Below are positions 2,745 through 35,101 of a DNA stretch of 64,000 nucleotides, in pieces. The notes under the pieces were generated by a model, which made no database searches, was not told the DNA's origin, and was given only the letters and a program-made list of their open reading frames with translations. The stretch is from an uncultured Pseudomonadota bacterium (GTDB taxonomy: Bacteria; Oederibacteriota; Muellerivitia; Muellerivitales; Muellerivitaceae), in NCBI GenBank assembly GCA_963770835.1, contig CAVYRH010000004.1:166515-230514 (forward strand). The letters are read 5' to 3'. How positions within the stretch are numbered: the first letter of the stretch is position 1; each line of letters opens with the position of its first letter. The translations under genes were made by a program, and so were the position numbers.

Positions 2745-3569
2745 TCAGTGAAGGGGATTCAACACTGCCTGTAGAAATTCCGAAACGGCTTGGATCGTGC
2801 CCCGGGTCATTTTATGCCCGATGGGAAATCCTTTTGAAATGGGGCGATAACCCGCCCGCCTTAAAGCCTCGAGGGTCGCCTGGACCATCTCTTCCTGGAC
2901 GATTGGGTCCAGTATCCCGTGCACCACGAGGATGGGCGTTCTGCGGGAAGCCGCCGGATGGGCCAGGGTTTTCTCCGGTTCCCCTATATAACCGTTCATC
3001 GAAACGACCGCCGCGATGTTTCCTTTGTAGTTCACCCCCGCCTCCAAGGACATCACGGCGCCTTGGGAAAACCCCATGATGACCACGGGCCTTCCAGTTC
3101 CCCCAGGGTTCGTTTGAACGGGAGCTTGGAGGGGAACATCTGAATCCGAAGAGATTGAATATTGCTTGGAAAAGTAATCCATGACCGCGAAAAGATAGTC
3201 CCGGCTTCTTTCGATATCCTTACGGCTGTGGGTCACGCGGTTGTACCAGGCATGGGTGAAGGAAGAGTATGGAGTCGTAGGAAAAGGGCCATCCGGCAGG
3301 ACGATCAAGCAGGGGGGAAGCTGGAATTCCCCGCTAATGCCCAACATCTCGTCGCCGTTGGTCCCGTAGCCGTGCAGGATCAGGACGACCGGAGCATCCG
3401 GTGGAAGGTCCTTGGGAGCCACCACCAGGCAACGGTGACCCTGAACGTACTCCGTGGAATAGGGAGCTTGGGCCCCGGCGGTTCCGGTCCCCAAAAGGAT
3501 TCCCAAAGCCACAAAGGCAATTCGAACAAAGTTTAATGTGTTGAAGACATTTTTCCTAAACCGAATCAA
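2745..3569 (-). CDS. Alpha/beta-hydrolase esterase (phospholipase/carboxylesterase family), secreted
   Basis: HGYG oxyanion-hole region, GFSQG nucleophile-elbow motif, C-terminal His region. Signal peptide. 4-nt overlap with the downstream yfhO-like gene. Confidence 0.7.
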   Translation of the reverse strand: MIRFRKNVFNTLNFVRIAFVALGILLGTGTAGAQAPYSTEYVQGHRCLVVAPKDLPPDAPVVLILHGYGTNGDEMLGISGEFQLPPCLIVLPDGPFPTTPYSSFTHAWYNRVTHSRKDIERSRDYLFAVMDYFSKQYSISSDSDVPLQAPVQTNPGGTGRPVVIMGFSQGAVMSLEAGVNYKGNIAAVVSMNGYIGEPEKTLAHPAASRRTPILVVHGILDPIVQEEMVQATLEALRRAGYRPISKGFPIGHKMTRGTIQAVSEFLQAVLNPLH

Positions 3570-5677
3570 CGTTTTTTCCCTCGATTCCCAAAGTTATAAA
3601 CGAACCCCGGAATAATCCTCAAAAACCCCGCTGAAAAACCCGCGAGGGCGAGAAGAGTGATGAAAAGCCCCAGGCGGAAGGTGGCGGGTTCATAGCGGAA
3701 ATCCGCCTGCTGACCGCCTGATTCCACAGCCACGGCCATGAAAAGGCCGTAAGCCCTCAAAATGGGCGTGGGTTTTCCATCCACCCAGGCGTGCCATCCT
3801 GGTGCGTAGCTTTCATTAAATACCACATAACCCGGTGCCGGTGAATCGGTGAAAGCGAAGATCCAGTTTCCGGAGGGACGGTAAATATCCTTTGTCGGCC
3901 GAAGGGCCAGCAGCCGTGAAACCGGGGAAAGCTGAACGAGAGTTCTATCGGAATTCCTCTCCAAATAAATTTTCTCCCGCCATTGGCTGTTGGGCTGCGC
4001 CAGGACGTTGAGAAGGGAAGGGCGGTCGGGAAATTCCGCAGTTCCAGGAACCCGGCGCATATCCACGGAAGCTTGAGAATCCAGGGAGAGGAAATTTTTC
4101 CCTATTTTCCCAGCCAATCGGTATTTGGGGGCAGGAAGGGGCTGTGGCAGGAGAAAGGCGCGCACCCCGGCGATCTCCAAGAGGTCACCCGAATAGGGGA
4201 ATCCCAAGTTTAAGTAACGCATGGTGTCCTTCAAGTTCTCCGTCTGGAGGGAAAAATAACCGGTCACCGTTCTTAAGCCCCAAACCATGTTGGTGTTGGG
4301 CAGGAGATTATCCGGGAAAACCCGGGACAGCCTTTCCTTCATTTCATCGTCCGTTTTTTCACCCGCCACGGACATGAAGAGGGAAGTTTGCAGGGCCAAT
4401 AGTCTTTCTCCGTCGGCTTCCTTCTGGATTTCCCCCACTTGCCGCTGGAGGATCGGGTCCCGGTAAGGGTTCGGAATCCGGTCGGTCAGGCGGAAGGGTA
4501 ACACCAATAGGTCCACAAGCCACAGGGCGGCGAGGACCCAAACCCAGGAGGTCTTTTTTATTCCTTCCGCGGATGGGTCCGCCGGGTTCCCCAGGAAACG
4601 GCAAAGGGAGGTACAAGCGGCGAAAAGAAAAAGCCCCACCGCTTTGGAAGGTTCCAGGAGGTTAAAGGCCGTGGCCGGTATGAGCTTCCACAAGAAAAGG
4701 GAGGGCCCGGCCATCCACACGAGCAGCAGAAGCGACAAGGGCCCCCAAAACCCGGCGCGGGTTCTTTTAAACACAAGGGATGCCATCCAAACCAGGCATG
4801 GGATGAGGCCGAAGTAAAGGTCGCCGAAGAGGGAGTTGGTGGAATCACTCCGGTAGTCGGAAGCGCCTGGAACCCCCAAGAACGTGGGATGAAAGAGGGT
4901 CAGGTATTCCCAAGGATGGGTGTAATAGGGGAACAGGTTCCAATGGTCGTGGGTGGTGTAGGTTAAAAATTCAAAAAAAGGAAACCACTGAAGGGATGTC
5001 AAAAGAAGCGAAGCTCCCAAGAGAATCACCACCCGGCCGATGACAGACGCTAAAGGGTGCTCCAAAGCCATCCAAAACAAAAGAACAACCCAGGTGTAAA
5101 AGACAAAGGTGGGATATCCAGCCAAGAGTTGGAGGCTCAAGACGGCCACCGCCAGCAAGGATTCCTTCAGCCTTCGATGTTGGAGGGCCTGGTGGACGGA
5201 CAGGAAAACCCAGGGGATCCAGCTTGCGGTGGCGATGAAAGGGAGGTTGATCCAACAACGGATGAAATGGGCCGAACCCGCGAAGGAAAGGGCGCCCAAG
5301 GCCGCGACCCACCCCCCGCTTTTCTGGGACCGGGCCCAAAAAAAGAATCCCACGTAGGCCCAGGCCTCGTGCAAGAGCGCGAGCCAAACCAGCCCATGGG
5401 GAAGGCCCAGGGTGTTTAAAAGCCAATAAGGCGGGTAAAAAAAGGCCGACTGCCAATTGGCCAGGTGGGGTATGCCGCAGCTGAGATAAGGGTTCCAGAG
5501 GGGGATTAGCCCTGCCCGGAGACTTTCCAGGTTAAAGGCCCTCTCCGGATAGACGTAAGCCAGGATGTCATTGTGAAAGGGAAGCCGGTTCCCCAGCCAA
5601 AGGGCGGAGGCGGCCAGGGTTAACAAATAAAGTCCGGGCATCCATTTAGAGGAGAGGGGAAAAGGATACTTAACCAA
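3566..5677 (-). CDS. YfhO-family polytopic membrane protein (putative glycosyl or lipid transferase)
   Basis: 703 aa with more than 12 predicted TM helices. YfhO-like N-terminal and loop composition, plus a C-terminal soluble domain. Confidence 0.55.
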   Translation of the reverse strand: MVKYPFPLSSKWMPGLYLLTLAASALWLGNRLPFHNDILAYVYPERAFNLESLRAGLIPLWNPYLSCGIPHLANWQSAFFYPPYWLLNTLGLPHGLVWLALLHEAWAYVGFFFWARSQKSGGWVAALGALSFAGSAHFIRCWINLPFIATASWIPWVFLSVHQALQHRRLKESLLAVAVLSLQLLAGYPTFVFYTWVVLLFWMALEHPLASVIGRVVILLGASLLLTSLQWFPFFEFLTYTTHDHWNLFPYYTHPWEYLTLFHPTFLGVPGASDYRSDSTNSLFGDLYFGLIPCLVWMASLVFKRTRAGFWGPLSLLLLVWMAGPSLFLWKLIPATAFNLLEPSKAVGLFLFAACTSLCRFLGNPADPSAEGIKKTSWVWVLAALWLVDLLVLPFRLTDRIPNPYRDPILQRQVGEIQKEADGERLLALQTSLFMSVAGEKTDDEMKERLSRVFPDNLLPNTNMVWGLRTVTGYFSLQTENLKDTMRYLNLGFPYSGDLLEIAGVRAFLLPQPLPAPKYRLAGKIGKNFLSLDSQASVDMRRVPGTAEFPDRPSLLNVLAQPNSQWREKIYLERNSDRTLVQLSPVSRLLALRPTKDIYRPSGNWIFAFTDSPAPGYVVFNESYAPGWHAWVDGKPTPILRAYGLFMAVAVESGGQQADFRYEPATFRLGLFITLLALAGFSAGFLRIIPGFVYNFGNRGKKR

Positions 5678-5852
5678 TTGTATTTATCCCCTGGGAGCAT
5701 GAAAAATAGCCGGGGAAACAACGTTCCGGGCTTGAAAGCCGGGATGGAGCCCCGATCGATCAGAAACCATTATAACGGGTGGGCATCTTTTTGACCGGGG
5801 GTCCATGCTAGAATACGCCCCCTGTCGGGCAAACTTTACGAGGAGGCGGGTC

Positions 5853-7295
5853 ATGGCGGCTACAGCGGAACAAGTGAAGCAAGCGGATTTCGGGGTGCTG
5901 GGGATCGCGGTAATGGGTGAGAACCTGGCCATGAATATCGAGGACCACGGCTTTTCGGTGGCCGTCTGCAACCTCCGGAGCGACCGGGTGACGCCCTTCA
6001 TGAAGCGTAACGCGGGAAAGAAATTCGTCGGCGCCCATACCCTGGAGGACTTCGTGAAGGCCCTGAAGCCGCCCCGCCGCGTCATGCTGATGGTCAAGGC
6101 CGGGGACCCGGTGGATGACGCCATCAAACTGTTGAAGCCCCTCCTGTCCAAGGGCGACATCATCATCGACGGCGGCAATTCCTGGTTCAAGGACACCCAG
6201 CGCCGGGAAGCCGAACTGACCAAGGAAGGTTTTTACTTTTTCGGCGCCGGAGTCTCGGGCGGCGAGGAAGGGGCCCGCTTCGGACCCTCCATCATGCCGG
6301 GCGGAAGCCCCCAGGCCTACGAGTTCGTGCGGCCGGTTTTCGAGGCCATCTCCGCCAAGACCGAGTCGGGCCCCTGCGTCACCCATTGCGGCCCGGACGG
6401 GGCCGGCCATTTCGTGAAGATGGTGCACAACGGCATCGAGTACGGCGATATGCAATTGATCGCCGAGGCCTACGATATCCTGCGCAAAGTGCTCGGACTT
6501 TCCGCCGCCGAGTTGGCGGATATCTTCAATGGGTGGAATAAAGGGATCCTGGATTCCTTCCTCATTGAACTCACCGCCAAGGTTTTCACCGTCAAGGACG
6601 ACGAGACGGGCAAGCCCCTAGTGGACATGATCCTGGACAAGGCGGGCCAAAAAGGAACGGGCAAGTGGACCGCCCAAATCGCGCTGGACTTGGGAATCCA
6701 AATCCCCACCATTGTCGCGGCTTTGGATGGGCGCGGCATGTCGAGCATTAAGGAAGAAAGGGTGGAGGTCAGCAAGCAAATCAAGGGTCCCACCATCTCC
6801 TATAAAGAAGATAAGAAGCAACTCATCGACGCCGTACGGGACGCACTTTACGATTCCAAGGTTTGCTCCTACACCCAGGGGATGAGGCTTATCAAGGCCG
6901 CCTCGGATGAGTACAAATGGGGCGTAAATTTGAAGGAAATGGCCCGCATTTGGAAGGGCGGGTGCATCATCCGGGCTAAACTCCTGGATGAGATCATGCA
7001 GGCTTACGGCCGTAACCCCAATCTGCAGTCCCTTTTGTTGGATGAGTCCTTTAAAAAGCGCATCGAATCCACACAAAGCAATTGGCGCAAGGCGGTTTCG
7101 GTGGCGGTGGCCAACGGCATCCCGGTGCCAGCCATGGGGGCCAGTCTGTCGTACTTTGATTCCTACCGTACGGCGGACCTGCCGCAAAACCTGACCCAGG
7201 CCCAGCGGGATTTCTTCGGGGCCCATACCTACCAAAGGGTCGACCATCCGGAGCGAGGATTCCTCCATACCGATTGGCTGTCAAAAACGAAGTAA
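5853..7295 (+). CDS. gnd: 6-phosphogluconate dehydrogenase (decarboxylating)
   Basis: Full-length match to the Gnd signature (GxAxxG NADP site, IIDGGNS, HNGIEYGDMQLI). ATG at 5853 preceded by AGGAGG. A possible -10 element TAGAAT lies at 5809-5814. Confidence 0.93.
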   Translation: MAATAEQVKQADFGVLGIAVMGENLAMNIEDHGFSVAVCNLRSDRVTPFMKRNAGKKFVGAHTLEDFVKALKPPRRVMLMVKAGDPVDDAIKLLKPLLSKGDIIIDGGNSWFKDTQRREAELTKEGFYFFGAGVSGGEEGARFGPSIMPGGSPQAYEFVRPVFEAISAKTESGPCVTHCGPDGAGHFVKMVHNGIEYGDMQLIAEAYDILRKVLGLSAAELADIFNGWNKGILDSFLIELTAKVFTVKDDETGKPLVDMILDKAGQKGTGKWTAQIALDLGIQIPTIVAALDGRGMSSIKEERVEVSKQIKGPTISYKEDKKQLIDAVRDALYDSKVCSYTQGMRLIKAASDEYKWGVNLKEMARIWKGGCIIRAKLLDEIMQAYGRNPNLQSLLLDESFKKRIESTQSNWRKAVSVAVANGIPVPAMGASLSYFDSYRTADLPQNLTQAQRDFFGAHTYQRVDHPERGFLHTDWLSKTK

Positions 7296-8252: not shown

Positions 8253-8630
8253 ATGAATTTTGAAATGATTCAAAATCTTTTGCCTTTAGCCCTGGCCTTC
8301 GTACTGGCTCTCGCGGTACCGGCGGCCATGTTTATCCTGTCGGCTTTCCTGGGACCCCGCCGCGACAACGAGGCGAAACTTTCCTCGTATGAGTGCGGCA
8401 TCCAGGCCGAGGCGGTTTCGGGCGACGCCCGCCACCATTTCAACGTGAAGTTCTACCTGATCGCCATGTGCTTCCTGGTCTTCGACGTGGAGGTTGTTTT
8501 CCTTTTACCATGGGCCGTATTGTTCCAGAAGATGGCCTGGGGAGGGTTCTTTTCCATGCTGGCCTTCCTGGGTGTCCTGGCTTTCGGCTGGTTTTACCTC
8601 TTGAAAAGGGGGGCACTGGAATGGGAATGA
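8253..8630 (+). CDS. nuoA: NADH-quinone oxidoreductase subunit A
   Basis: 125 aa with 3 TM helices and a NuoA-like sequence ([17 protein letters not shown]). Confidence 0.9.
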
Positions 8631-9130
8631 CAGGCGAAGGTTTTCCGGCCATCACCACCCGCAGGGACGCGGTCGTCGCCTGGGGACAGAAAAATTCCCT
8701 GTGGCCCATGCCCTTCGGCACGGCCTGCTGCGCCATCGAGTTCATGGGCGTGGCCGCCTCCGTTTTTGACATCTCCCGCTTCGGCGCCGAACTGGTCCGC
8801 TTTTCCCCGCGCCAAGCCGACCTTCTTTTGGTGGCGGGCACCGTCACCTTCAAGCAGGCTCCCATCCTGAAACAAATTTATGAGCAGATGTGTGAGCCCA
8901 AGTGGGTCATCTCCATGGGCGTCTGCGCTTCCGCCGGCGGGTTCTACAATAACTACTGCACGGTGCAGGGCATCGACCAGGTGATCCCCGTGGATGTTTA
9001 TATCTCCGGCTGCCCCCCCCGTCCCGAGGCCATCCTGCAAGGGGTCCTGAAACTCCAGCATAAGATCGCGAACCCCAAGGCGGTTCCTCCGGCGCAGTTC
9101 AAGGTGAAAGAGCCTCATTTCGACTACTAA
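8621..9130 (+). CDS. nuoB: NADH-quinone oxidoreductase subunit B
   Basis: [10 protein letters not shown] and CPPRPE N2-cluster cysteine motifs. Start overlaps the nuoA stop by 10 nt. Confidence 0.9.
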
Positions 9131-9177
9131 AGCCAGCTCACAGTCGACGGTTCACAGTTCACAGGTAAGGCGAAAAG

Positions 9178-9717
9178 ATGAACAACGAAAACCTATTAGC
9201 GAAATTAACCCAAAAGCATCCCGAAGCCTTGTTGGGTTCGGTGGACCGTTTTGGCGCGCTTGAAATTCAAGTCGCGGGCGAATCCATCGCCGAAGTTGTC
9301 GTGACCCTGCGGGACGATCCGGACTTCTCCTTTAACATGCTCGTCGACCTGGTTTCCATCGATTATTCCGCCTACCAAGGTTGGACGGGCGAGAGGTTCG
9401 GCCTGGCCTACCTCTTCAAGTCCCTGACCCTGGGCCACCGCCTGCAGTTGAAAGTGTCTGTGCCCGAGGATGAACCGATCGCACCGACGATTTCCACGCT
9501 TTACGCCAATGCCAATTGGCTGGAAAGGGAGGCTTACGACCAAATGGGAATCCGCTTCGCCCACCATCCCAACCTGAAACGGATCCTGAACCACCACGAG
9601 TTCGTGGGGCATCCCTTGCGGAAGGATTATCCCATCACCAAACGCCAATGGCTTTCGGCCAACGAGTCCCTGATGGATGAGATGGAAGTACGGTTGAAGG
9701 CGAAGGGCTACGAATGA
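9178..9717 (+). CDS. nuoC: NADH-quinone oxidoreductase subunit C
   Basis: 179 aa of the NuoC/30-kDa subunit family (ANWLEREAYDQMGIRF). Confidence 0.88.
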   Translation: MNNENLLAKLTQKHPEALLGSVDRFGALEIQVAGESIAEVVVTLRDDPDFSFNMLVDLVSIDYSAYQGWTGERFGLAYLFKSLTLGHRLQLKVSVPEDEPIAPTISTLYANANWLEREAYDQMGIRFAHHPNLKRILNHHEFVGHPLRKDYPITKRQWLSANESLMDEMEVRLKAKGYE

Positions 9718-10968
9718 ACAACATTGATCCCCAAACCCTGCTTCCCAAAACCAACGACGAAAACTCCGCGTCCGGCTTAGATTCGGCAAGACACAAAGAC
9801 AGGAAAGACCTGGTTTTCGTCAACCTGGGCCCCAGCCACCCCGCCACCCACGGCTGCCTGCGGGCCCTTTGCGCCCTGGACGGGGAAACCATCGTGGCCG
9901 CCGTGACCGAAATGGGTTACCTGCACCGGGGTTTCGAGAAAGACTGCGAAGTCCACACCTTCCAACAAGTCATTCCCTACACCGACCGGCTCAATTATGT
10001 TTCTGCCATCATGAATAACGTGGGTTACTGCAAGGCCGTGGAACGGATGCTGGGCATCCAAATCCCCGACCGGGCGGCCTATATCCGCGTCATTACTTGC
10101 GAGTTCAACCGCATCATCGACCACTTGGTCTGCGTGGGCGCCAACCTGGTGGACATCGGGGCCCTGACCAATTTCTGGTACTCCTTCAACGCCCGCGAGA
10201 AGGTCTACGACATCCTGGAAAAGCTCTGCGGGGCCCGGCTGACCTCCAGCTACACCCGTATTGGGGGTCTTTCCCGGGACGTTTATCCCGCTTTCGGCGA
10301 CGAAGTGAGGGCGGTGCTGAAGGATATTAAAAAGAGCGTCTCCGAAATCACCAAACTAATTTCCAAAAACCGCATTTTCCTGGACCGTACCCAGGGCGTC
10401 TGCGTCGTCTCCAAGGAAAAGGCCATTTCCTACGGCTGGACCGGGCCGACGCTCAGGGCCTGTGGGGTGGAATACGACCTGCGCAAGGCGGACCCCTATT
10501 ACCACTACGAGGATTTCAAGTTCGAAGTGCCGGTGGGCACCAAGGGCGATATCTACGACCGCATCTTCGTGCGGCTCTACGAGATCGAGGAATCCATCGA
10601 GCATCATCGAACAAGCCCTGAGGAAACTCCCCAAGGGACCCATCCTGACCGACGACAAGCGGGTGGCCCTTCCTCCCAAACAGCAGACCTACGGCAATAT
10701 CGAGGGGCTGATGAACCACTTCAAGATCATCATGCACGGCATCTGCCCGGAACCGGGCGAGGTTTATGACTTCACCGAGGCTGCCAACGGCGAACTGGGG
10801 TTTTATATCGTTGCCGACGGGGGCAAGAATCCCTACCGCATCAAGTGCCGCCCACCCTGCTTCATGAACTTCGCGGCCTTCCACGAGATGATCGAGGGCG
10901 GCATGATCGCGGACGCCATCGCGAATTTGGGATCGATCAACATCATTGCCGGAGAGCTGGACCGGTAA
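9714..10968 (+). CDS. nuoD: NADH-quinone oxidoreductase subunit D. Apparent +1 frameshift at about 10599-10602.
   Basis: The N-terminal 296 aa are in frame 0 up to ..YEIEESI. The conserved C-terminal part (IIEQALRKLPKGPI...GELDR) continues in frame +1. One extra base lies in the quartet gagc at 10599-10602. Confidence 0.85.
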
Positions 10969-10993
10969 ACGGAATAAAAAACCCGAGGGTGTA

Positions 10994-11473
10994 ATGGCCG
11001 TTCAGTTTAAAAAAGAAACGAAGAACGAGTTCGAGACGATTGCCGCCCGATACCCGGTGCGGCGCGCGGCGCTGTTGCCCGCCCTGTGGCTAGCCCAGCG
11101 GGAATTCGGCTTCATCTCCGTGGACGCCATGAAGGCGGTAGCCGAGATGGTGGGTTGTTCCCCGGCCCAAGTGCTGGAGACCGCCAGCTTTTACACCATG
11201 TACCACAAGGAAAAGCCGGGCAAGTACCACCTGCAAGTCTGCCAGACCATCTCTTGCCTCTTAAACGGGTCGGAAGAGATCAAGAAGACCATTGAAGCGA
11301 AGCTCAACCTGAAGCCGGGACAAGTAACACCCGACGGGCAGTTCAGCTACCAGCCTGTGGAATGCCTGGCGGCGTGCCATAACGGGCCCTGCATGCGGGT
11401 GAATGATGACTACCACGAAAACCTGACGCCCGAAGGCGTTGGGAAACTGATTGATGAACTGAAGAGAAAATGA
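10994..11473 (+). CDS. nuoE: NADH-quinone oxidoreductase subunit E (24 kDa, 2Fe-2S)
   Basis: Thioredoxin-like fold with Cys motifs CQTISC...CLAAC. ATG at 10994 after a GAGGG ribosome-binding site. Confidence 0.88.
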   Translation: MAVQFKKETKNEFETIAARYPVRRAALLPALWLAQREFGFISVDAMKAVAEMVGCSPAQVLETASFYTMYHKEKPGKYHLQVCQTISCLLNGSEEIKKTIEAKLNLKPGQVTPDGQFSYQPVECLAACHNGPCMRVNDDYHENLTPEGVGKLIDELKRK

Positions 11474-11937
11474 ACATTATGAAAGGCCTTCTTGGAAGAA
11501 AGGGACTTGTTTTTGCGGCGATCCTTTTTGCTGTGCATTGCACGCCAGCTCGGGCGGAGGAATTATCAAGTGGGAACGAGGTCGTTAATTACGGGGTTGG
11601 AGTGACGTTCACCGGAAAGATCGCAACCCGGTTGGAATATGGAGCACCGGGTTTTGGGGAGGACCCAAAGACAGACGCAAAGGAAAACATCTTCTTGTTG
11701 GTGTTGGATAAACCCATTGATGTTCATGTGGATCAGAGCCGTCCGGGCGATGTTACCGATACGAATGATTTCGATGGAGTGAAAGAAATGCAGGTGGTTT
11801 TTACCGGCAAAAGAATGTTTTCGAAAAAAATAATAGGGAAGAAGGTCAAAGTGACCGGAACATTATTCCAAGCTCATACCGGCCATCATCATACGGACGT
11901 TTTAATCGAAGTAGATACTGTAGAAAGATTGAAGTGA
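11470..11937 (+). CDS. Low-GC secreted His-cluster protein inserted between nuoE and nuoF (hypothetical)
   Basis: ATGA overlap with the nuoE stop. Signal peptide with an AXA cleavage site (ARA|EE). HTGHHH motif. GC about 45% versus about 60% in the flanking nuo genes. Confidence 0.6.
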   Translation: MNIMKGLLGRKGLVFAAILFAVHCTPARAEELSSGNEVVNYGVGVTFTGKIATRLEYGAPGFGEDPKTDAKENIFLLVLDKPIDVHVDQSRPGDVTDTNDFDGVKEMQVVFTGKRMFSKKIIGKKVKVTGTLFQAHTGHHHTDVLIEVDTVERLK

Positions 11938-11952
11938 ACCCGGAGCGAATCA

Positions 11953-13233
11953 TTGCCTGACTTTCAACCTCAATTAACCAAACGTTTCGGACTCAAGGAC
12001 AGCCATATGCTCAAGGTATTCCTTGAGACGGGTGGCTATGCGTCCTTGAAGAACCTTTTCGCCAAGAAGCCAGCCGAAGTCATCGAGGAAGTGAAGGCCT
12101 CCGGCCTCAAGGGCCGCGGTGGGGCCGGGTTCCCGTGTGGTATGAAATGGTCCTTTGTGCCCCAGAACACGGGCAAACCAATCTACCTGGCGGTCAATGC
12201 CGACGAGGGCGAACCGGGGACCTTCACCGACAATTACATGCTCTTAAACGACCCTCATCTTTTATTAGAAGGCATCCTATGCGCTTGTTATGCCATCAAC
12301 AGCCATACGGCTTATATTTATGTCCGGGGTGAGTTTTATGCGCATATCCAGCGGCTGAACGCTGCCATTGATGAAGCCCGGAAAGCTGGATATTTAGGGA
12401 AAAACATCCAGGGTTCGGGTTTCGATCTGGAAGTTTACGTGCACCGGGGTGCGGGGGCCTATATCTGCGGCGAGGAAACCGGGCTTTTAGAATCGCTTGA
12501 GGGAAAACCCGGAAAACCGCGCATTAAGCCGCCTTTTCCGGCGGTGGTCGGACTCTTCGGTTGCCCCACCATCGTCAACAACGTGAAAACCCTGGCTTCC
12601 GTCCCTTGGATCATCGCCAACGGTGCGCCGGCCTATGCCGTCATCGGTACCAAGGAATCCACCGGCACCCACGTCTTCGGACTCTCGGGCCACGTGAACC
12701 AGACCGGCTATTGGGAAATGCCCTTCGGCCTTCCCATGATGGAATTCATCAACAACTACGGCAAGGGAGTGAAGGGCGGGGCGCTCAAGGCTGTCATTCC
12801 CGGCGGTTCTTCCTGCCCTGTACTAACTGCCAAGGAATGCGAAGACTTGACCCTTACATATGAAAGTATGCGGGACCACAAAACCATGTTCGGAACAGGT
12901 TGCGCCATCGTGATGAACGAGCACACCGATATGGTGAAGGTTTTGAAAAATCTGACCCATTTTTATTCCCACGAGTCCTGCGGCCAGTGCACGCCCTGCC
13001 GGGAAGGGACAGCCTGGGAAGACCGGCTGATGAAGAAGTTTTTGAACGGGGAAGCCACGACCCAGGAATTGGGAATGATGCTGGAGATCGCCGACAACAT
13101 GGAGGGCAAGACCATCTGCGTTCTTTCGGCGGCCCTGGCCATGCCGGTCCGAAGTTTCATCCAGAAATTCCGGCCGGATTTTGAGAAATATTGCAAGCCG
13201 ACCTCAGTGGCCGTGCCGGAGGCGGTTTCCTAA
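11953..13233 (+). CDS. nuoF: NADH-quinone oxidoreductase subunit F (FMN/NADH-binding, 4Fe-4S)
   Basis: GLKGRGGAGFPCGMKW FMN site and ESCGQCTPCREG cluster motif. TTG start. Confidence 0.92.
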   Translation: MPDFQPQLTKRFGLKDSHMLKVFLETGGYASLKNLFAKKPAEVIEEVKASGLKGRGGAGFPCGMKWSFVPQNTGKPIYLAVNADEGEPGTFTDNYMLLNDPHLLLEGILCACYAINSHTAYIYVRGEFYAHIQRLNAAIDEARKAGYLGKNIQGSGFDLEVYVHRGAGAYICGEETGLLESLEGKPGKPRIKPPFPAVVGLFGCPTIVNNVKTLASVPWIIANGAPAYAVIGTKESTGTHVFGLSGHVNQTGYWEMPFGLPMMEFINNYGKGVKGGALKAVIPGGSSCPVLTAKECEDLTLTYESMRDHKTMFGTGCAIVMNEHTDMVKVLKNLTHFYSHESCGQCTPCREGTAWEDRLMKKFLNGEATTQELGMMLEIADNMEGKTICVLSAALAMPVRSFIQKFRPDFEKYCKPTSVAVPEAVS

Positions 13234-14858
13234 TGGCGAAAATCACCATCGACGGAAAACCCATGGAAGTGCCCGACGGCACCAACGTGCTGGAGGCGGC
13301 AGTTTCCAACGGCGTGCCACTGGAGCACTTTTGCTACCACCGCTATCTGCCCGTTGCCGGCAACTGCCGCACTTGCATGGTGGAGATCGAGGGGCCCAAG
13401 GGGCGCATGCTTACTATCGGCTGCAACACCAAGGTGGCCGAGGGCATGGTGATCCACACCGACACCCCCAAGGCCAAACAAGCCCAAAAGAGCGCTCTGG
13501 AGATGCTCCTCCTGGACCACCCACTGGACTGCCCCGTCTGCGACAAGGCGGGGGAATGCAAACTGCAGAACCAATATATGGAATACGGACTTTACGATTT
13601 CCGCCGGGGGGTGCCCCGCTACTTCAAGGGCGGAAAGGACGAGGATATCGGCGAGCACGTCATCCTGGACCAGGAACGCTGCGTGCTATGCACCCGGTGC
13701 ATCCGCTTCGTCGACGAGATCCCCAAGACGTCCGAGCTGGGAATCATGAACCGCGGCCATGAATCCGTCCTCAGCATTTTCCCGGGAGTACGGTTGGATA
13801 ACCCCTATTCCGGAAACGTCACGGACGTCTGCCCGGTTGGTGCGCTCACCTTGAAGGAATTCCGCTTCAAGCAAAGGGTGTGGTTCCTCAAGAAAGCCGA
13901 ATCCGTCTGCCCGGGCTGCGCTAGGGGCTGCAACATCACGGTGGAACATAACCATGGGCGGATTTACCGCTTCATGCCCCGTGAAAACGCAGAACTGAAC
14001 AAGACCTGGATCTGCGACGAAGGGCGTTTTTCCTTTAATCACTGGCAGGACAACCGGGTGGAAGAAGTGCGGTTGGGGCACGGAAGTTCAAACCTGGATG
14101 ACGGCATCGCCCAATTGGCCAACCTCTTGGAAGGCCTCTCACCGGAGGAAGTCGCGGGCATCGCCTCCCCCGCCGCCGCCCTGGAAGACCTTTATGTTAT
14201 GAAGAAACTGTTCGAGAAGCGTTTCCGGCTGAAGAACCTCGCCGCGCCCTTTTGGGGCAAGAAAGGCGACGAGGATAAAATCCTCAAGCTCGCGGACAAG
14301 ATCCCCAACACCCAGGGTCTAAATCTTTTGGGCATCGACACCGAGGGAAAGGACCTTTTAGCCCGCATTGAAAAAGGAAACTTTAAGGCCGTCCTCATCA
14401 TGCACAACAACCCCTTCGGACAGGACGAGGAAAAGGCCCAAAAGGTCTATGGAAACGTGAAAGTATTGGTTGTGCTTTCGGTCCATAAAACCAAAATGGC
14501 CGAGCGGGGCTCTATGGTTTTCCCCGTGAGGCCTTTCACCGAGAAGAATGGAACCTTCGTGAACGCCACCAGCCGTCTCCAGCGGTTCCGGCAGGCTATT
14601 GAACCCGGAAACCCCGACGTGGTGGAGGCTTCGTTATGGATGTGCCGATTGGCCAAGGCCCTGAAGGTGGAAGGCCTAGATTTTGAGGACACTCCCTCGA
14701 TCTTCAACGCCATGGCCAAGGAAGTGGAGGCTCTCAAAGGGCTGACGTTTAATTCCATTCCCGCCACCGGCAAGGTTTTGGATTTGAAACCCCTGGCCCC
14801 GGAACCTTTCCAGGGCGTGAAGGCCCAGCCCAACGTGTGTGGAAAGGCCAAGGCATGA
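13233..14858 (+). CDS. nuoG: NADH-quinone oxidoreductase subunit G (short form, 541 aa)
   Basis: N-terminal 2Fe-2S ferredoxin fold (CYHRYLPVAGNCRTC), then CPVCDKAGEC and CVLCTRCIRF cluster motifs. 1-nt overlap with nuoF (taATG). Confidence 0.88.
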   Translation: MAKITIDGKPMEVPDGTNVLEAAVSNGVPLEHFCYHRYLPVAGNCRTCMVEIEGPKGRMLTIGCNTKVAEGMVIHTDTPKAKQAQKSALEMLLLDHPLDCPVCDKAGECKLQNQYMEYGLYDFRRGVPRYFKGGKDEDIGEHVILDQERCVLCTRCIRFVDEIPKTSELGIMNRGHESVLSIFPGVRLDNPYSGNVTDVCPVGALTLKEFRFKQRVWFLKKAESVCPGCARGCNITVEHNHGRIYRFMPRENAELNKTWICDEGRFSFNHWQDNRVEEVRLGHGSSNLDDGIAQLANLLEGLSPEEVAGIASPAAALEDLYVMKKLFEKRFRLKNLAAPFWGKKGDEDKILKLADKIPNTQGLNLLGIDTEGKDLLARIEKGNFKAVLIMHNNPFGQDEEKAQKVYGNVKVLVVLSVHKTKMAERGSMVFPVRPFTEKNGTFVNATSRLQRFRQAIEPGNPDVVEASLWMCRLAKALKVEGLDFEDTPSIFNAMAKEVEALKGLTFNSIPATGKVLDLKPLAPEPFQGVKAQPNVCGKAKA

Positions 14859-16168
14859 TGGACTCGAACCAAGTTTTCACCCTTATCAACATCGCGGTGA
14901 TGACGGTGGTGATGTGGCTTATTCCCCTCCAATTCATCCCGGTTTTCATCTGGCTGGAGCGCAAGGGAAGCGCTATCATCCAGGACCGCATCGGTCCCAA
15001 CCGCACGGGAATCCTGGGGTTCCGACTTTTCGGCATGGTCCAGAATTTCGCGGACGTCGTGAAACTTTTGATGAAAGAAAACATCGTACCCACCAAGGCC
15101 AACCGCTTTTATTTCATGCTGGCGCCCTTTTGGGCCATGACCATCAGCCTCCTGCCCCTTTTGGTGGTTCCCCTCGCCGCCCCCCTCAACTTGATGGGAC
15201 ATACCATCCGTTTCCAGGCCGCCGACCTTGGCGTGGGGCTTCTCTTCATCCTTTCCATCACCAGCATGGGAGTCTTCGCCATCATCCTGGCCGGGTGGTC
15301 CTCCAACAACAAATTTTCCCTTATGGGGGGGCTGCGTTCCTCGGGCCAAATGATTTCCTACGAGCTTTCCATGGGCCTGGCAATGGTGGGGCTCTTGATG
15401 GTCTACCAGGATGTCCGGATGAGCTCCATCGTGGAAGCTCAAGGAAGGCTTTTGACCGCATGGGGCCACACTCTGCCGCTGCCCAATTGGGGTATATTCC
15501 TCCAGCCTGTCGGGTTTCTCCTTTTTTTGGTGGCTTCTTTCGCTGAAACCAACCGAAATCCCTTCGATTTGGCGGAAGGGGAGTCGGAACTGGTGGCGGG
15601 CTTCCACGTGGAATACTCCAGCGTCAAGTTCTCACTCTTCTTCATGGCCGAGTATTCCAACATGGTGGTGGCGGCCTTCGTGATCTCGACCCTATTCCTG
15701 GGTGGCTACCAGGTGCCCTTCGCCTCCACTGATACCCTGTTGCAAAACCCGAAACTAACCCTGGCCCTTTTATGCGGATTAGTGATCCTACTCATGGGGC
15801 TTACCGGCCTATTCCTCTATAAGAGGGGGAACCAGCAAAAACACCTTTTCGCCAACGGGGTGAAAAGGGCTGAGCCCTTTCTTTTCGCGGGGCTTTGCTT
15901 TGCGGTTGCGACGGCGGCCCTGGCATTCCTGGCTGTGGGTTTGACAACGGAACTTGCCCCATGGATCTACGGGATCGCCACCACCCTGTTGCAATTGTTT
16001 TGCCTGGTCCTGAAGGTGCTGTTTTTCTGCTGGCTCTTCGTATGGGTACGCTGGACCCTGCCGCGGTTCCGTTACGACCAGCTGATGAAGATGGGATGGA
16101 AGCTCATGCTGCCGCTGGCCTTGTTGAACTTGCTGGTGACCGGCGTGATTATTTTGACACAAAAGTGA
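14855..16168 (+). CDS. nuoH: NADH-quinone oxidoreductase subunit H (with an insertion of about 90 aa)
   Basis: NuoH signature regions (IQDRIGPNR, AETNRNPFDLAEGESELVAGFHVEYS). ATGA overlap with nuoG. Confidence 0.88.
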   Translation: MMDSNQVFTLINIAVMTVVMWLIPLQFIPVFIWLERKGSAIIQDRIGPNRTGILGFRLFGMVQNFADVVKLLMKENIVPTKANRFYFMLAPFWAMTISLLPLLVVPLAAPLNLMGHTIRFQAADLGVGLLFILSITSMGVFAIILAGWSSNNKFSLMGGLRSSGQMISYELSMGLAMVGLLMVYQDVRMSSIVEAQGRLLTAWGHTLPLPNWGIFLQPVGFLLFLVASFAETNRNPFDLAEGESELVAGFHVEYSSVKFSLFFMAEYSNMVVAAFVISTLFLGGYQVPFASTDTLLQNPKLTLALLCGLVILLMGLTGLFLYKRGNQQKHLFANGVKRAEPFLFAGLCFAVATAALAFLAVGLTTELAPWIYGIATTLLQLFCLVLKVLFFCWLFVWVRWTLPRFRYDQLMKMGWKLMLPLALLNLLVTGVIILTQK

Positions 16169-16204
16169 TGAATAGCCGAGGGAACAGAGGAGTTTGAGGT
16201 TTTT

Positions 16205-16750
16205 ATGAGAATTGTGCAACGGCCCGAAATGAAGGGCTCTGAAAAAATATACGTGGTGGAAGTGGTCAAGGGCCTTTGGCTGACGATCGGCCACGTCGTT
16301 ACCAACCTATTCCATCCGGAAAACTTGCCCACGGTCTTCTTCCCCGAGGAAAAGAAGGCGCTTCCACCCGCCACCCGCGGGAGACACCGCCTCATGAAAC
16401 GGGAAGATGATTCGCCGCGTTGCACGGCCTGCATGCTGTGCGCCACGGCCTGCCCGGCCGAGTGCATCCACATCCTAGCCGCCGAGTCGCCCGATCCGAA
16501 CATCGAGAAGCTCCCTGAGAAATTTGATATCGATATGCTGCGCTGTGTGTATTGCGGCTTTTGCGTGGACGCCTGTCCCCTGGACGCCATCCGGATGGAC
16601 ATTCCGGAGGTTACTGTCGCCGGTTACACGCGCGACAGCCTGGTGTACCACAAGAAATTCTTGATGGATCACGACAACAAAGACGTAGTGCCGGATTATA
16701 ATCCGCCCCGGCCAGTCCTTTGGACACATGGGCCCCATGCAAAGCCTTAA
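16205..16750 (+). CDS. nuoI: NADH-quinone oxidoreductase subunit I (2x[4Fe-4S])
   Basis: CTACMLCATACP and CVYCGFCVDACP motifs. Confidence 0.9.
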   Translation: MRIVQRPEMKGSEKIYVVEVVKGLWLTIGHVVTNLFHPENLPTVFFPEEKKALPPATRGRHRLMKREDDSPRCTACMLCATACPAECIHILAAESPDPNIEKLPEKFDIDMLRCVYCGFCVDACPLDAIRMDIPEVTVAGYTRDSLVYHKKFLMDHDNKDVVPDYNPPRPVLWTHGPHAKP

Positions 16751-16848
16751 GAAGCAGTCAACAGTTGGCGGTCGGCAGCCGGAAATAAGTAAAAGACGCT
16801 GGTTTTTAGTTGTCGACCGTCGACTGTCAGCTTGGAGAAAGGGAAGTC

Positions 16849-17352
16849 ATGATTGAAGCGGTTTTGTTCTATATTCTGGCCGCGGTTCTCTTGGGCATGG
16901 GTTTGCTGGTGATCACCAGGACTAATCCCATCGCCTCGGCCTTGGGGCTGGTGGCTGCCTTCGCGGCTTTGGCGGCCCTTTACGCCCTTTTGTCCGCTTC
17001 GCTGGTGGCCATCATCCAAATCCTGGTTTACGCGGGCGGCATCATGGTGCTCATGATCTTCGTGATCATGCTTTTGAACCTTCATCCGGACGACCTCAAG
17101 CCCATGCGGGCCAAGGGAATCGTCGTGGCATTGGCCCTGGTTATGGTTTTGGGGTTGGTCTTAGGCCCGGTTTTCCTGGTGGTTTTCCCCGCCGGGACTT
17201 GGACCCTAGCGCCCGTGGCGGCGGGCTTTGGGGACATTTTCTCAGTCGGTGAAAAAATATTCTCGGATTATTTGTTTCCCTTTGAGATGCTCTCGCTGGT
17301 GCTTTTGACGGCCATCGTGGGAGCTTTGGTCCTCACGAAAAGGAAACTTTAA
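16849..17352 (+). CDS. nuoJ: NADH-quinone oxidoreductase subunit J
   Basis: 168-aa membrane subunit. ATG 16849 after GGAGAAAGGGA. Confidence 0.85.
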   Translation: MIEAVLFYILAAVLLGMGLLVITRTNPIASALGLVAAFAALAALYALLSASLVAIIQILVYAGGIMVLMIFVIMLLNLHPDDLKPMRAKGIVVALALVMVLGLVLGPVFLVVFPAGTWTLAPVAAGFGDIFSVGEKIFSDYLFPFEMLSLVLLTAIVGALVLTKRKL

Positions 17353-17670
17353 ATGGAGCTTTTATATCCCATCACGCCCACGCATTACCTGGTCCTGTCG
17401 GGCTTGTTATTCGGCATTGGAACGGCGGGGGTGCTGTCGCGCAGGAACCTGTTCGTCGTCTTGATGTCCCTGGAATTGATGCTGAACGGGGTGAACCTTT
17501 CCTTCATCACCTTTTCCAGGGTGAACGGCGATTTGACGGGCCATGTGATCGTCTTGTTCGTGGTGGCCATTGCGGCGGCGGAAGCCTGCGTGGGATTGGC
17601 CATCGTGATCGCCCTTTACCGCCTGAAGGAAACGGTGGATTTGGATTTATTTAAGAGCTTGAAAGGCTGA
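17353..17670 (+). CDS. nuoK: NADH-quinone oxidoreductase subunit K
   Basis: 105 aa with 3 TM helices and the conserved glutamates (LELMLNGVNL). Confidence 0.88.
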   Translation: MELLYPITPTHYLVLSGLLFGIGTAGVLSRRNLFVVLMSLELMLNGVNLSFITFSRVNGDLTGHVIVLFVVAIAAAEACVGLAIVIALYRLKETVDLDLFKSLKG

Positions 17671-17671
17671 A

Positions 17672-19651
17672 ATGGGAATCGAAGCGTTCCAATATAAGTC
17701 CCTGATCCAGTTCGACTGGATTTGGCTCATCCTTGCCGCTCCCCTCCTGGGGGCGGTTGTGAACGGTGCTTTGACCCTTTTCGCAGCGGGCCGCAAAACC
17801 AACATCGCCCATGGGTTTTACGCCACGGTTGGCTGTGGGGGGGCCTTCCTTTCTTTTATCGCCTCCTGGCTAACCTTCCTTCATTTTAAGGAGCTACCCG
17901 CCGGCAGCGTTTTGACCCAGGAATTGTTCGATTGGATCGAGGCGGGGGCCTTCCACACGAAGATGAGTTTCGAACTGGACGCCCTCTCCATAAGTATGGT
18001 GGTGTTCATTACCTTCGTTTCAAGCCTTATCCATCTTTATTCTGTGGGGTACATGAAGGACGATCCAGGTTTCGGCCGGTATTTCACTTACCTGAATATT
18101 TTCCTCTTTTCCATGCTGGTCTTGGTGATGGCCCAAAATCTTCTCGTGCTCTTTTTGGGATGGGAAGGCGTGGGGTTTTGTTCCTATCTTTTGATCGGTT
18201 TTTGGTTCGACGATGCCGCGAAGGCCAACGCGGGCAAGAAAGCCATCATCGTCAACCGCATCGGGGACGCGGGCTTCCTGGCCGGCCTACTGATCCTCTT
18301 CGCGCTGGCGGGGACCTTCAATTTCAACGAACTGCAAATGGGGAAGCACGCTTTCACTGAGCTTTCCGCCACGGTGATCTGCCTTTGTTTCTTCTTCGGC
18401 GCGGCGGGCAAGTCGGCCCAGATCCCCCTTTACGTCTGGCTGCCGGACGCCATGGCGGGCCCCACGCCGGTATCGGCCCTCATCCACGCCGCCACCATGG
18501 TGACGGCGGGTATTTACCTGGTGGCGCGCCTCAATTTCCTCTTCGTCCTGGCGCCCTGGGCCTCCATGGTGGTGGCGGTTATCGGCGTTTTAACTGCCCT
18601 CTTCGCGGCCACCCTAGCCCTGGCCCAAAACGACATCAAAAAGGTTTTGGCTTACTCCACCATTTCCCAACTGGGGTTCATGTTCTTGGGGGCGGGGGTC
18701 AGCGCCTACGGCGCCGGACTCTTTCATCTCATCACCCACGGGTTTTTCAAGGCTTGCCTCTTCCTGGCGGCAGGCTCGGTCATTCACGTTTTGAAGGGAG
18801 AGCAGGACATCCGCAAGATGGGCGGGCTGCTGAAACATATCCCGTTGACGAGCATCTCCTTCTTCCTTGGTTGGGCCGCCATTACGGGCGTCCTGCCTTT
18901 TTGCGGGGGATTTTTCAGCAAGGACGAAATCCTCTGGCGGGCCCTGGCAACCCCCAACCCGGTCATTCCCTTTTTGCCGGAAGCGCTTTATTTCACCGCC
19001 CTTTTCACCGCCTTCCTGACGGCTTTTTACATGACCCGCCTTTTCGTGACGGTTTTCTTCGGGGAATACCGGGGGGACCGCGAAATCTTCGAACACCTGC
19101 ACGATTCACCGAAGGTCATGACGGTGCCGATGCTGCTTTTGGGAGTGGGTTCCATCGTCGTCGGCTGGATCGGAGTGCCCGAGGCCATCGGCGGGGGAAA
19201 TTCCCTGGGTAAGTTCGTGGAACCGATTTTCCATCTTTCCACCCTGGAGGCCAACAACATCTCCCCGAAATTGGAGCCGCTTTTGATGCTGCTTTCCTTC
19301 TTAGTGGCGGGCTTGGGGGTCCTGGCCGCCTGGTATGTCTATGGGTGGAAGCACAACATCAGCCCGGTTCTTTTAAAGTTGATTCCTGGCGGTAAGAAGG
19401 CCGTCGAGAAAAAATATTATGTGGATGAGATTTACGAAGTGTTGGTGGTGCGTGCGGTTAAGGGGTTTGCCCATTGGGTCTCCGACAGGCTGGTGGAACA
19501 AATCCTCATCAACCGGGTACTGGATGTAATCACCCAAGGGGTTTACGCGGTCGCGAAGTTATTGAGGAAAACCCAAGTGGGCCTGGTGCGGGTTTACTTG
19601 GCCTACGTCGTGGCGGGCGCCGCACTGTTGATTTATCTCTTACTTCATTAA
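17672..19651 (+). CDS. nuoL: NADH-quinone oxidoreductase subunit L
   Basis: 659-aa antiporter-like subunit (WLPDAMAGPTPVSALIHAATMVTAG). Confidence 0.9.
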   Translation: MGIEAFQYKSLIQFDWIWLILAAPLLGAVVNGALTLFAAGRKTNIAHGFYATVGCGGAFLSFIASWLTFLHFKELPAGSVLTQELFDWIEAGAFHTKMSFELDALSISMVVFITFVSSLIHLYSVGYMKDDPGFGRYFTYLNIFLFSMLVLVMAQNLLVLFLGWEGVGFCSYLLIGFWFDDAAKANAGKKAIIVNRIGDAGFLAGLLILFALAGTFNFNELQMGKHAFTELSATVICLCFFFGAAGKSAQIPLYVWLPDAMAGPTPVSALIHAATMVTAGIYLVARLNFLFVLAPWASMVVAVIGVLTALFAATLALAQNDIKKVLAYSTISQLGFMFLGAGVSAYGAGLFHLITHGFFKACLFLAAGSVIHVLKGEQDIRKMGGLLKHIPLTSISFFLGWAAITGVLPFCGGFFSKDEILWRALATPNPVIPFLPEALYFTALFTAFLTAFYMTRLFVTVFFGEYRGDREIFEHLHDSPKVMTVPMLLLGVGSIVVGWIGVPEAIGGGNSLGKFVEPIFHLSTLEANNISPKLEPLLMLLSFLVAGLGVLAAWYVYGWKHNISPVLLKLIPGGKKAVEKKYYVDEIYEVLVVRAVKGFAHWVSDRLVEQILINRVLDVITQGVYAVAKLLRKTQVGLVRVYLAYVVAGAALLIYLLLH

Positions 19652-19670
19652 GGCAGCTCTTAGAAGTTTT

Positions 19671-19695
19671 AGCTGTTAGCCAAAAACTAACAGCT
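19671..19695 (+). other. Perfect 9-bp stem hairpin (AGCTGTTAG-N7-CTAACAGCT) in the nuoL-nuoM intergenic spacer
   Basis: Read directly. No trailing T-tract, so this is not a canonical terminator. Confidence 0.6.
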
Positions 19696-19729
19696 AAAAG
19701 CCAAAAGCTGATTTAAAAAGAGGTTTATT

Positions 19730-21313: not shown

Positions 21314-21337
21314 ACACGGAGCCGGTAAAGTTATTCC

Positions 21338-34578: not shown

Positions 34579-34609
34579 TTTTTTGGTGTTTTGGCCAGGA
34601 GGTGTTGTT

Positions 34610-35101
34610 ATGGCTTCAAGTTCGCCCCAACCGCCTCCGCTTCGCGTTTGTGAGGTTTGTGGCCAGACAAGCGCACAAAAGATTTGTCCAAATTGCGGGA
34701 CTTCGGCCGCTTTTGTGGGCTGGTTTACCCGCAAGGTAAAAGACAAGATAACAATCATCCTTTTATGGTTAGCATTAATTTTTGCTTGGATCGAATTGTT
34801 CGTCTTGATGAAGGTTGTGCCTACGTTTGCTGACGTATTTGCAAGTTTTGGCGCAAAGTTGCCAGGGCCAACTGTTATTTGGATTCAAATGAGCAATGGA
34901 GTGAAGTTGTTTAATTCTCCTTTTCTTATGTGGATTCCATTTGGGGCGCTTTACCTTTTGATTGTATTTCCATTTGAACGCTTAAGGATTTTTGGTCTCA
35001 AAACGGCAGTTGGGTTGTTTGTTTTTTCAATTTTATTTATTTTTTTTACCATTATTTCGTTGTTCATGCCGATGTTTGAAATAGGGAATGTCGTCAACTA
35101 A
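34610..35101 (+). CDS. Zinc-ribbon plus GspF/PilC-like membrane segment protein inserted between sdhA and sdhB (hypothetical)
   Basis: CEVCGQ...CPNCG zinc ribbon. The TM region VVPTFADVFASFGAKLPGPT resembles the conserved T2SS-F/PilC segment. The 3' two-thirds is AT-rich (about 38% GC). ATG 34610 after AGGAGG. Confidence 0.55.
   Translation: MASSSPQPPPLRVCEVCGQTSAQKICPNCGTSAAFVGWFTRKVKDKITIILLWLALIFAWIELFVLMKVVPTFADVFASFGAKLPGPTVIWIQMSNGVKLFNSPFLMWIPFGALYLLIVFPFERLRIFGLKTAVGLFVFSILFIFFTIISLFMPMFEIGNVVN

Follow-up and report, generated by a model that had tools for sequence, protein, structure and literature searches.

The small secreted immunity proteins that counter cell-wall-degrading polymorphic toxins and effectors of type VI secretion systems (T6SS), such as Tsi, Tai and Tgi (PMC10539506, PMC9796082), are the closest described counterparts of the gene considered here, a member of the DUF4431 family (PF14485) that encodes 155 residues. 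It lies between nuoE and nuoF of the complex I operon in a 64,000-nucleotide stretch of DNA from an uncultured bacterium (contig CAVYRH010000004.1, assembly GCA_963770835.1), which was analysed as a whole and is called the window below. Like these immunity proteins, members of DUF4431 are small and secreted, and their genes adjoin, usually directly downstream, C-terminal peptidoglycan-hydrolase toxin domains, including those of Rhs proteins and of orphan C-terminal (CT) arrays. Like immunity genes, they are patchily distributed, fast-evolving and AT-rich, and the window copy has no cognate toxin nearby. In Rhs systems the immunity gene follows the toxin, and protection from non-self effectors can come from orphan immunity genes (PMC10539506).

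What sets this locus apart from the described systems? No sequence relationship of DUF4431 to a described immunity family was found (Pfam and NCBIfam return PF14485 only). Unlike described orphan immunity genes, the window copy sits outside any toxin locus or immunity island and is translationally coupled within a core respiratory operon. Periplasmic immunity proteins against cell-wall-degrading effectors, orphans included, are a kind already known; DUF4431 has not previously been described as one of them, and the domain predicted as its target has been recognized solely as an endolysin of phages.

Lysozyme inhibitors (Ivy, MliC/PliC, PliG and LprI) offer a further point of comparison. Ivy inserts a conserved histidine, borne on a protruding loop, into the active site of lysozyme. 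DUF4431 proteins share with these inhibitors a small size, a periplasmic or surface location and family-invariant loop motifs; one of them (P0060) is fused to an LprI lysozyme-inhibitor domain, and the predicted DUF4431 target has a lysozyme-like fold (PMC8943055). They differ in their predicted OB-fold, in the lack of any sequence similarity, and in a predicted target that belongs to the Enc34/PHA02564 glycosidases rather than to the C-, G- or I-type lysozymes. Inhibitors with an OB-fold are found in the potempins, lipoproteins that block the KLIKK proteases of Tannerella (PDB 8ehb, 8b2n). However, these are only 14-17% identical to DUF4431, score within the generic OB-fold range (SSB, RPA, tRNA-synthetase anticodon domains), and act on metalloproteases, not glycosidases.

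Additional reading frames between complex I genes have precedents as well. We take URF1, between nqo2 and nqo1 of Paracoccus denitrificans, to be one of them. In Rhodobacter capsulatus, open reading frames (ORFs) are intermixed with the nuo genes (PMC4758237) and, as in the window, interrupt the canonical order, including around nuoE, nuoF and nuoG. The ORFs of both organisms show no sign of DUF4431 membership or of secretion and are likened to our gene by position, not by sequence. With such precedents in other nuo operons, the arrangement described here is a curiosity rather than a new principle.

Our analysis indicates that the DUF4431 gene of the window is an accessory, recombining passenger and not a subunit of complex I; very likely it acts in the periplasm in a role unrelated to complex I function. 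As to that role, we lean towards a putative orphan periplasmic immunity gene against Enc34-type toxins.

A DUF4431 gene between nuoE and nuoF

The features of the junction and of the encoded protein are as follows.

10994..11473, + strand: nuoE, NADH dehydrogenase 24-kDa subunit (PF01257, E 3e-51)
11470..11937, + strand: DUF4431-family gene, 155 amino acids, ATG start (ORF confirmed in the sequence)
11470..11473, + strand: ATGA in which the nuoE stop and the DUF4431 start overlap (read directly from the sequence)
11470..11556, + strand: predicted Sec signal peptide, residues 1-29, cleavage after A-R-A (hydropathy and the -3/-1 rule)
11638..11685, + strand: loop motif 1, YGAPGFGEDPKTDAKE, residues 57-72, with invariant G58, P60 and E64 (alignments)
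11857..11904, + strand: motif 2, GTLFQAHTGHHHTDVL, residues 130-145, with invariant G130, G138, H139, H140 and T142 (alignments)
11938..11952, + strand: 15-nt spacer ACCCGGAGCGAATCA with a Shine-Dalgarno-like GGAG ahead of nuoF (read directly from the sequence)
11953..13233, + strand: nuoF, 51-kDa flavin mononucleotide (FMN) subunit, TTG start (PF01512 and PF10589)

NuoE probably starts at the ATG at 10994 (MAVQFKK...) and is 77-96% identical to NuoE of orthologous loci, and the TTG start of nuoF aligns with the ATG and GTG starts of orthologous NuoF proteins. A similar GGAG precedes nuoF in two of the related loci described below (L001 and L008). Within the DUF4431 gene, an alternative in-frame ATG lies at 11479, from which one database copy (P0001) has been called. 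The ATGA overlap is a signature of translational coupling. A promoter-like site lies upstream of nuoA (8139-8168); as a scan of the + strand found no sigma-70-like promoter or terminator-like site between nuoE and nuoF, with counts at the level of shuffled sequence, co-transcription of the DUF4431 gene with nuo is plausible, and from the anatomy as a whole so is its translational coupling to the operon. An earlier reading of the stretch from its sequence only had described a low-GC 155-residue ORF that overlaps the nuoE stop, ends 15 nt before nuoF and is coupled to the N-module part of the operon; the ORF, the overlap, the spacing and the NuoE and NuoF flanks are all borne out.

That reading had also called the product secreted, and this too holds up. 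The N-terminus, MNIMKGLLGRKG-LVFAAILFAVH-CTPARA followed by EE, has the n, h and c regions of a Sec-type signal, with three basic residues, a hydrophobic core of 11 residues and an A-x-A site. The Kyte-Doolittle mean of the core is 2.83 over its 11 residues, against at most 1.35 elsewhere in the protein, and AlphaFold2 places a helix at residues 10-23. The protein is thus very probably secreted, and an N-terminal hydrophobic segment is likewise present in 113 of 126 single-domain representatives of the family.

Family membership is unequivocal: PF14485 is matched with 57.6 bits against a gathering score of 24 (E 1.1e-15, residues 106-152, model positions 1-48 of 48). It is the sole Pfam match of the protein at E <= 1, where no lysozyme-inhibitor family appears, and scans of NCBIfam, PADLOC and PHROGs, as well as a profile search of PDB sequences up to E <= 10, returned nothing. 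The Pfam model represents only the C-terminal 48 residues, which include motif 2, and comes without function, structure or paper; our literature search found no paper that mentions the family. The sequence-only reading had looked to a family of known, unrelated function as a test of its proposals. The family indeed proved to be a known one, but as a DUF it has no function assigned to it in print. With a profile built from 19 homologues, 3,821 clusters at 50% identity are recovered (E <= 0.001). Most members are 140-180 residues long, some are tandem duplications, and a few are fused to other surface domains.

AlphaFold2 models the protein confidently as a six-strand barrel (pLDDT 82), which we assign to the OB-fold as a prediction. 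Two alignments, one of them of 127 family sequences, define two conserved motifs, YGPPx[FY]GE.P..D.KE and GTLFxAxTGHHxTxVL, which in the predicted secondary structure fall between strands 2 and 3 and in the loop of strands 5 and 6, respectively. The window protein keeps G58, P60, G63, E64, D69, G130, T137, G138, H139, H140, T142, V144 and L145. Its HTGHHH cluster (residues 136-141) had been read as suggestive of metal binding. Within the cluster, however, only H139 and H140 are invariant across the family, H136 and H141 being replaced by E/F/Q and R/W/Y, respectively, and no metal-binding family is matched; the gene context points instead to the inhibition of cell-wall hydrolases. A 2H-phosphoesterase-like reading of the cluster, based on its HxT pattern, was dropped because the predicted fold is an OB barrel.

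Linkage of the DUF4431 family to Enc34-type hydrolase domains

Outside the lineage of the window, which belongs with genomes labelled candidate division FCPU426 (see below), none of 80 metagenome DUF4431 loci lies near nuo genes. In 14 of these 80, a same-strand gene upstream, overlapping or at most 24 nt away, ends in a domain of about 130 residues with invariant WRNNNPGN and EGW motifs. When only closed DUF4431 ORFs preceded by 400 nt or more are counted, the domain is linked to 11 of 46; L093, where the DUF4431 ORF is cut by the contig end, is the 14th locus. The linkage emerged from jackhmmer and HMM searches seeded with the neighbour in L092. A first census, based on greedy longest-ORF calling and Pfam, had recovered only an HbpS-like protein as a recurrent neighbour (10 of 95); the toxin domain, for which Pfam has no model, escaped it.

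The domain is carried on varied N-termini. In L093 it forms the C-terminus of a 1,618-residue RHS-repeat protein (E 2e-14), immediately after the canonical core end RYSYVNNDPVNHVDLTGL (...NNDPVNHVDLTGL). It is homologous to the Enc34-type (PHA02564) peptidoglycan glycosidase and also matches PHROG tail families and Gp29 (PDB 9vvp). The Enc34 domain is muralytic by experiment and has a lysozyme-like fold with a catalytic glutamate in its last helix (PMC8943055). In the reciprocal direction, starting from five homologues of the domain, an adjacent DUF4431-family gene was found in four loci, downstream in three and upstream in one; among the downstream cases is L173, an orphan CT module with its DUF4431 gene inside an Rhs/TEN_YD-shell array. 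The fifth locus is phage-like. The DUF4431 partners of Enc34-type domains carry signal peptides.

At the level of the family, the partner is in some loci (L093, L173) an Rhs-associated toxin module, and the compartment of the DUF4431 protein matches the target of the toxin. A secreted partner of a peptidoglycan-degrading toxin looks like a periplasmic immunity protein by analogy, and from this linkage we propose that DUF4431 is a family of periplasmic immunity proteins or inhibitors.

Three further observations concern these neighbourhoods. In L177 (around 3001..3636), an Enc34-type domain protein lies among phage-like genes (SU10_adaptor, SLT), which confirms that this hydrolase domain circulates in phage virion or lysis proteins and Rhs toxins alike. 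In L185 (2975..3412), the DUF4431 gene lies downstream of an Enc34-type domain and matches the profile with its N-terminal half (E 2e-14), the TGHH motif having been lost. Finally, three genes keep together in this order in a single clade of soil bacteria (L091 2718..6232, L132, L089 and related loci): a secreted protein of about 730 residues with two HbpS-like domains, DUF4431, and a translationally coupled, Cys-containing protein of about 265 residues with an N-terminal hydrophobic segment. The HbpS-linked DUF4431 genes all fall within one clade of the family tree.

How could such a protein act from within the nuo operon? The gene, which has no recognisable promoter of its own, would be transcribed from the nuo promoter; ribosomes that finish nuoE would pass on to it by termination-reinitiation at the shared ATGA, and nuoF would reinitiate from its own GGAG, downstream in the 15-nt spacer. 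In this way the passenger would be made constitutively while expression of the N-module remained unbroken. After Sec export, the mature periplasmic protein would serve as a stoichiometric inhibitor of Enc34-type (PHA02564) peptidoglycan glycosidase domains, which other bacteria would deliver as C-terminal domains of Rhs and related polymorphic toxins, and the orphan copy would shield the cell wall from these weapons of competitors. More speculatively, the GPPxFGE and TGHHxT loops, which lie where OB-folds in general have their ligand-binding face, may form the surface that blocks the hydrolase groove.

History of the insert and readings of its function

NuoF of the window is 93% identical to that of metagenome-assembled genomes labelled candidate division FCPU426. 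DUF4431 orthologues (46-69% identity) occupy exactly the nuoE-nuoF junction in four other contigs (L001, L002, L006 and L008). The ATGA overlap is present in four of the five nuo-embedded loci (the window, L001, L006 and L008), and in L002 the gene instead begins with a TTG after an 18-nt spacer. In 14 species representatives of FCPU426 type, whose NuoF is 78-93% identical and whose junction sequence was covered, the same junction is empty: nuoE and nuoF abut or stand 7-119 nt apart (gaps of -1 to 119 nt). None of the 80 NuoF loci retrieved has a DUF4431 ORF. The NuoF tree mixes loci with and without the gene. In the three nearest loci without it (NuoF 91-93%), a spacer of about 100 nt with inverted repeats takes its place. 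These spacers (L009 3888..4000, L010 3901..3994, L011 3882..4000; about 95-120 nt) consist of GC-rich inverted repeats (e.g. CCGCGAAG...CTTCGCGG) and look like a REP/MITE-like hairpin element.

Within the DUF4431 family tree the nuo-embedded copies make up a single clade, yet their history departs from that of the flanking genes. Between the window and L002, non-synonymous divergence (dN) is 0.38 for the DUF4431 gene and 0.014 and 0.038 for nuoE and nuoF; between the window and L008 the values are 0.18 against 0.12 and 0.10. Nucleotide identity drops near the boundaries of the gene, and the topology of its tree differs from that of nuoE and nuoF. We infer a single ancestral insertion within FCPU426, followed by losses, by exchange through homologous recombination across the conserved flanks, or by both. 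Ancient, strictly vertical inheritance was rejected on account of the empty junctions in close relatives and the incongruent divergence; insertions of native GC in all relatives, which the sequence-only reading had named as a sign of such inheritance, are not seen, the copies being low in GC and many junctions empty. Its suggestion of a hitchhiker agrees with these empty junctions and with the incongruence. Its view that an insert at this point is unusual has to be tempered, as the junction holds an unrelated ORF of about 175 residues in another lineage and hairpin repeats in close relatives.

Searches for repeats around the insert, whether target-site duplications or inverted repeats, gave chance-level short matches only, and tblastn of the DUF4431 protein against 72,556 plasmids and 50,697 phages gave no match. 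Among 2.9 million viral contigs (IMG/VR) there are only seven distant relatives (L178-L184, 27-29% identical), on contigs labelled viral or prophage, with no Enc34-type domain within 4 kb of them. The gene thus lacks the flanking repeats, the recombinase gene and the presence on plasmids or phages that would characterize the cargo of a mobile element.

The base composition of the gene is atypical, as had been claimed. GC is 0.455, at the 4.9th percentile of all 468-nt windows of the stretch (z = -2.0), and GC at third codon positions (GC3) is 0.474, against 0.68-0.79 for nuoA-H and an ORF median of about 0.68 in the window. Other low-GC stretches lie mostly outside called ORFs; an insert that separates sdhA from sdhB and portions of 51652..53874 are the exceptions. 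The further claim of a foreign composition stands only in part: all five nuo-embedded copies have a GC3 of 0.35-0.51 beside nuo genes at 0.73-0.86, and synonymous sites are saturated among them (dS > 1.2). Recent horizontal transfer from a low-GC donor was therefore rejected as the sole cause; the low GC3 is maintained rather than the mere residue of one recent transfer. Plausible causes are continual exchange in a pool of AT-rich accessory genes, codon selection that is weak beside that on the highly expressed nuo genes, and selection for low translation. We propose that it reflects the AT-richness common among accessory genes that are exchanged, sustained by turnover and by codon selection weaker than that on nuo.

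Might the gene then lack a function altogether, as a foreign ORF of recent arrival that drifts neutrally or decays, or be an artefact of gene calling? The low GC and GC3 and the patchy presence would be in keeping with this. However, dN/dS among the nuo-embedded copies is 0.14-0.22 across saturated synonymous divergence, which indicates purifying selection on a functional accessory gene, not junk, and largely refutes the idea; all family-invariant residues are retained, the predicted fold is confident, and the ORF is intact in five lineages with its coupling signals conserved. We regard this reading as scarcely credible. The same selection, together with an operon position and a translational coupling kept in five lineages, could speak for a lineage-specific accessory or assembly factor of complex I at the periplasmic side of the membrane arm, and the unrelated secreted protein of about 175 residues at the same junction elsewhere could mean a convergent need. 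Yet the junction is empty in the 14 FCPU426-type genomes, with NuoF up to 93% identical, and lineages that naturally lack the gene and have normal assembly and activity of complex I count against such a factor. None of the 80 loci outside FCPU426 adjoins nuo, and the huge family is mostly unlinked to respiration. The gene moreover sits among N-module genes, whose products are cytoplasmic, and its history is incongruent with that of nuoE and nuoF. As its presence is not conserved with nuo and it does not co-evolve with nuoE and nuoF, it does not behave as a subunit or obligate factor, and a role of this kind is highly improbable.

Readings that leave complex I aside have to account for the neighbours of the family. 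If the protein bound a metal or haem in the periplasm, with the invariant His-His pair and Glu64 as ligands, for metal homeostasis or redox sensing, its co-expression with the iron-rich complex I would be meaningful, and the two invariant histidines, the glutamate and the HbpS-like neighbour of one clade are in keeping with this. We nevertheless consider it unlikely: Pfam, NCBIfam and PDB return no metal-binding family, only two histidines are invariant, Cys or Met ligands are absent, the HbpS-linked loci are closely related members of a single clade and amount to about one observation, and both the patchy distribution and the toxin linkage are left unexplained. A protein that regulates endogenous peptidoglycan hydrolases as a housekeeping function, or a general envelope-stress protein of the YgiW/BOF type with an OB-fold, would agree with the fold, but appears to us similarly doubtful, since it predicts uniform presence in relatives where the pattern is patchy, and since the conserved partner, where there is one, is a toxin-type module (an Rhs C-terminal domain or an orphan CT array). 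Alternatively, DUF4431 may inhibit Enc34-type hydrolase domains wherever they occur, including those of phage tape-measure, ejection and 'tail injection transglycosylase' proteins, and thereby form a periplasmic barrier against phages. This extension is rather a long shot. If true, a constitutive periplasmic copy in a housekeeping operon would be a new kind of anti-phage defence that blocks the penetration of the cell wall at genome injection, in addition to conferring immunity against other bacteria.

An orphan immunity protein remains the reading that we favour, and several points weigh against it. The proposed function derives from the neighbours that related genes have in other organisms, whereas the window gene itself is flanked by nuoE and nuoF rather than by a toxin. 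About 75% of DUF4431 loci with upstream sequence have no Enc34-type neighbour, and the 730-residue HbpS-like protein is another recurrent one, if only in a single clade. The window protein is just 35-46% identical to toxin-linked members and may differ from them in specificity, and the toxin-linked L185 protein, which lacks GHH, indicates that this motif is not strictly required for pairing. The label 'orphan' follows from these neighbours and from the absence of an Enc34-type domain in the 64-kb window and in the short (about 9 kb or less) FCPU426-type nuo flanks, and is established for this range only. Lastly, the GC3 that stays low under saturated dS counts against it as well.

If our proposal is correct, it provides the first testable function for a large DUF family of some 3,800 clusters at 50% identity, and a new effector-immunity pair in which a glycosidase toxin domain of the Enc34/PHA02564 type is matched by a periplasmic inhibitor with an OB-fold. 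It would also mean that an orphan immunity gene can lodge, translationally coupled, in a highly conserved operon and persist there as a presence/absence polymorphism. Such a gene would be a clean natural example of a passenger that borrows housekeeping expression, and a caution against its annotation as a novel complex I subunit. The understanding of complex I itself is unchanged by our findings.

Neighbouring genes and other inserts

The operon around the DUF4431 gene comprises the following further features.

8253..22795, + strand: nuoA-N operon (ORF lists; nuoD, nuoE, nuoF and nuoG identified by Pfam and phmmer), with approximate gene starts at 8253 (nuoA), about 8621 (nuoB), 9178 (nuoC), 13233 (nuoG) and 14837 (nuoH), and the downstream genes thereafter
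9714..10968, + strand: nuoD, with an apparent frameshift (Pfam and phmmer)

NuoD is read in two frames (9714..10769 and 10462..10968). Alignment to an intact orthologue of 417 residues places the switch at about 10596..10600, directly after ...YEIEES; it is either an indel of assembly or sequencing or a genuine change of frame in a complex I gene that is essential.

A second low-GC ORF (34583..35101, + strand, probable ATG at 34610; GC 0.41, GC3 0.42) lies between sdhA/frdA (32662..34578) and sdhB/frdB (35088..35846) and overlaps the start of the latter. In its product, a zinc-ribbon (CxxC...CxxC) at the N-terminus precedes a membrane domain that bears a T2SS-F-like motif (VPTFADVFASFGAKLPGPT); the product matches nothing in Pfam or PADLOC, and its few distant homologues (34-36% identity) are not encoded in sdh operons. 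In L002 (NuoF 93%), two very AT-rich genes (3226..3886, GC3 0.32) are inserted between nuoF and nuoG, encoding a DUF6864 protein of 121 residues and an ORF of 100 residues whose C-terminal half is hydrophobic and rich in Gly and Ala; in the window, nothing is inserted at this junction. Together, these inserts indicate that respiratory operons of the lineage repeatedly host AT-rich passengers, and in this uncultured phylum such operons may be recurrent landing sites for accessory genes.

Inserts of other kinds occur farther afield. The unrelated secreted protein at the nuoE-nuoF junction mentioned above (169-178 residues; L034 3472..4002, L040 3451..3987, L079 3480..3989) belongs to another lineage, with NuoF about 52% identical, and has normal GC and no Pfam match. 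In Verrucomicrobia (loci within L038-L086, about 5190..6420), nuoE and nuoF are fused and followed by variable inserts of 350-1,230 nt before nuoG, which, judged by eye, resemble ORF6N-like proteins, two genes like a PIN/antitoxin pair, and a repeated element whose translation reads ...ILSEAKNLSRSGR(A/T)GKRQRPFATLRVT. Elsewhere in the window, two genes on the - strand (41982..46544 and 47119..49950) encode proteins of 1,520 and 943 residues with DUF11, DUF7507 and FlgD-Ig repeats, which are probably located at the cell surface, and a third FlgD-Ig protein is encoded at 37950..39416.

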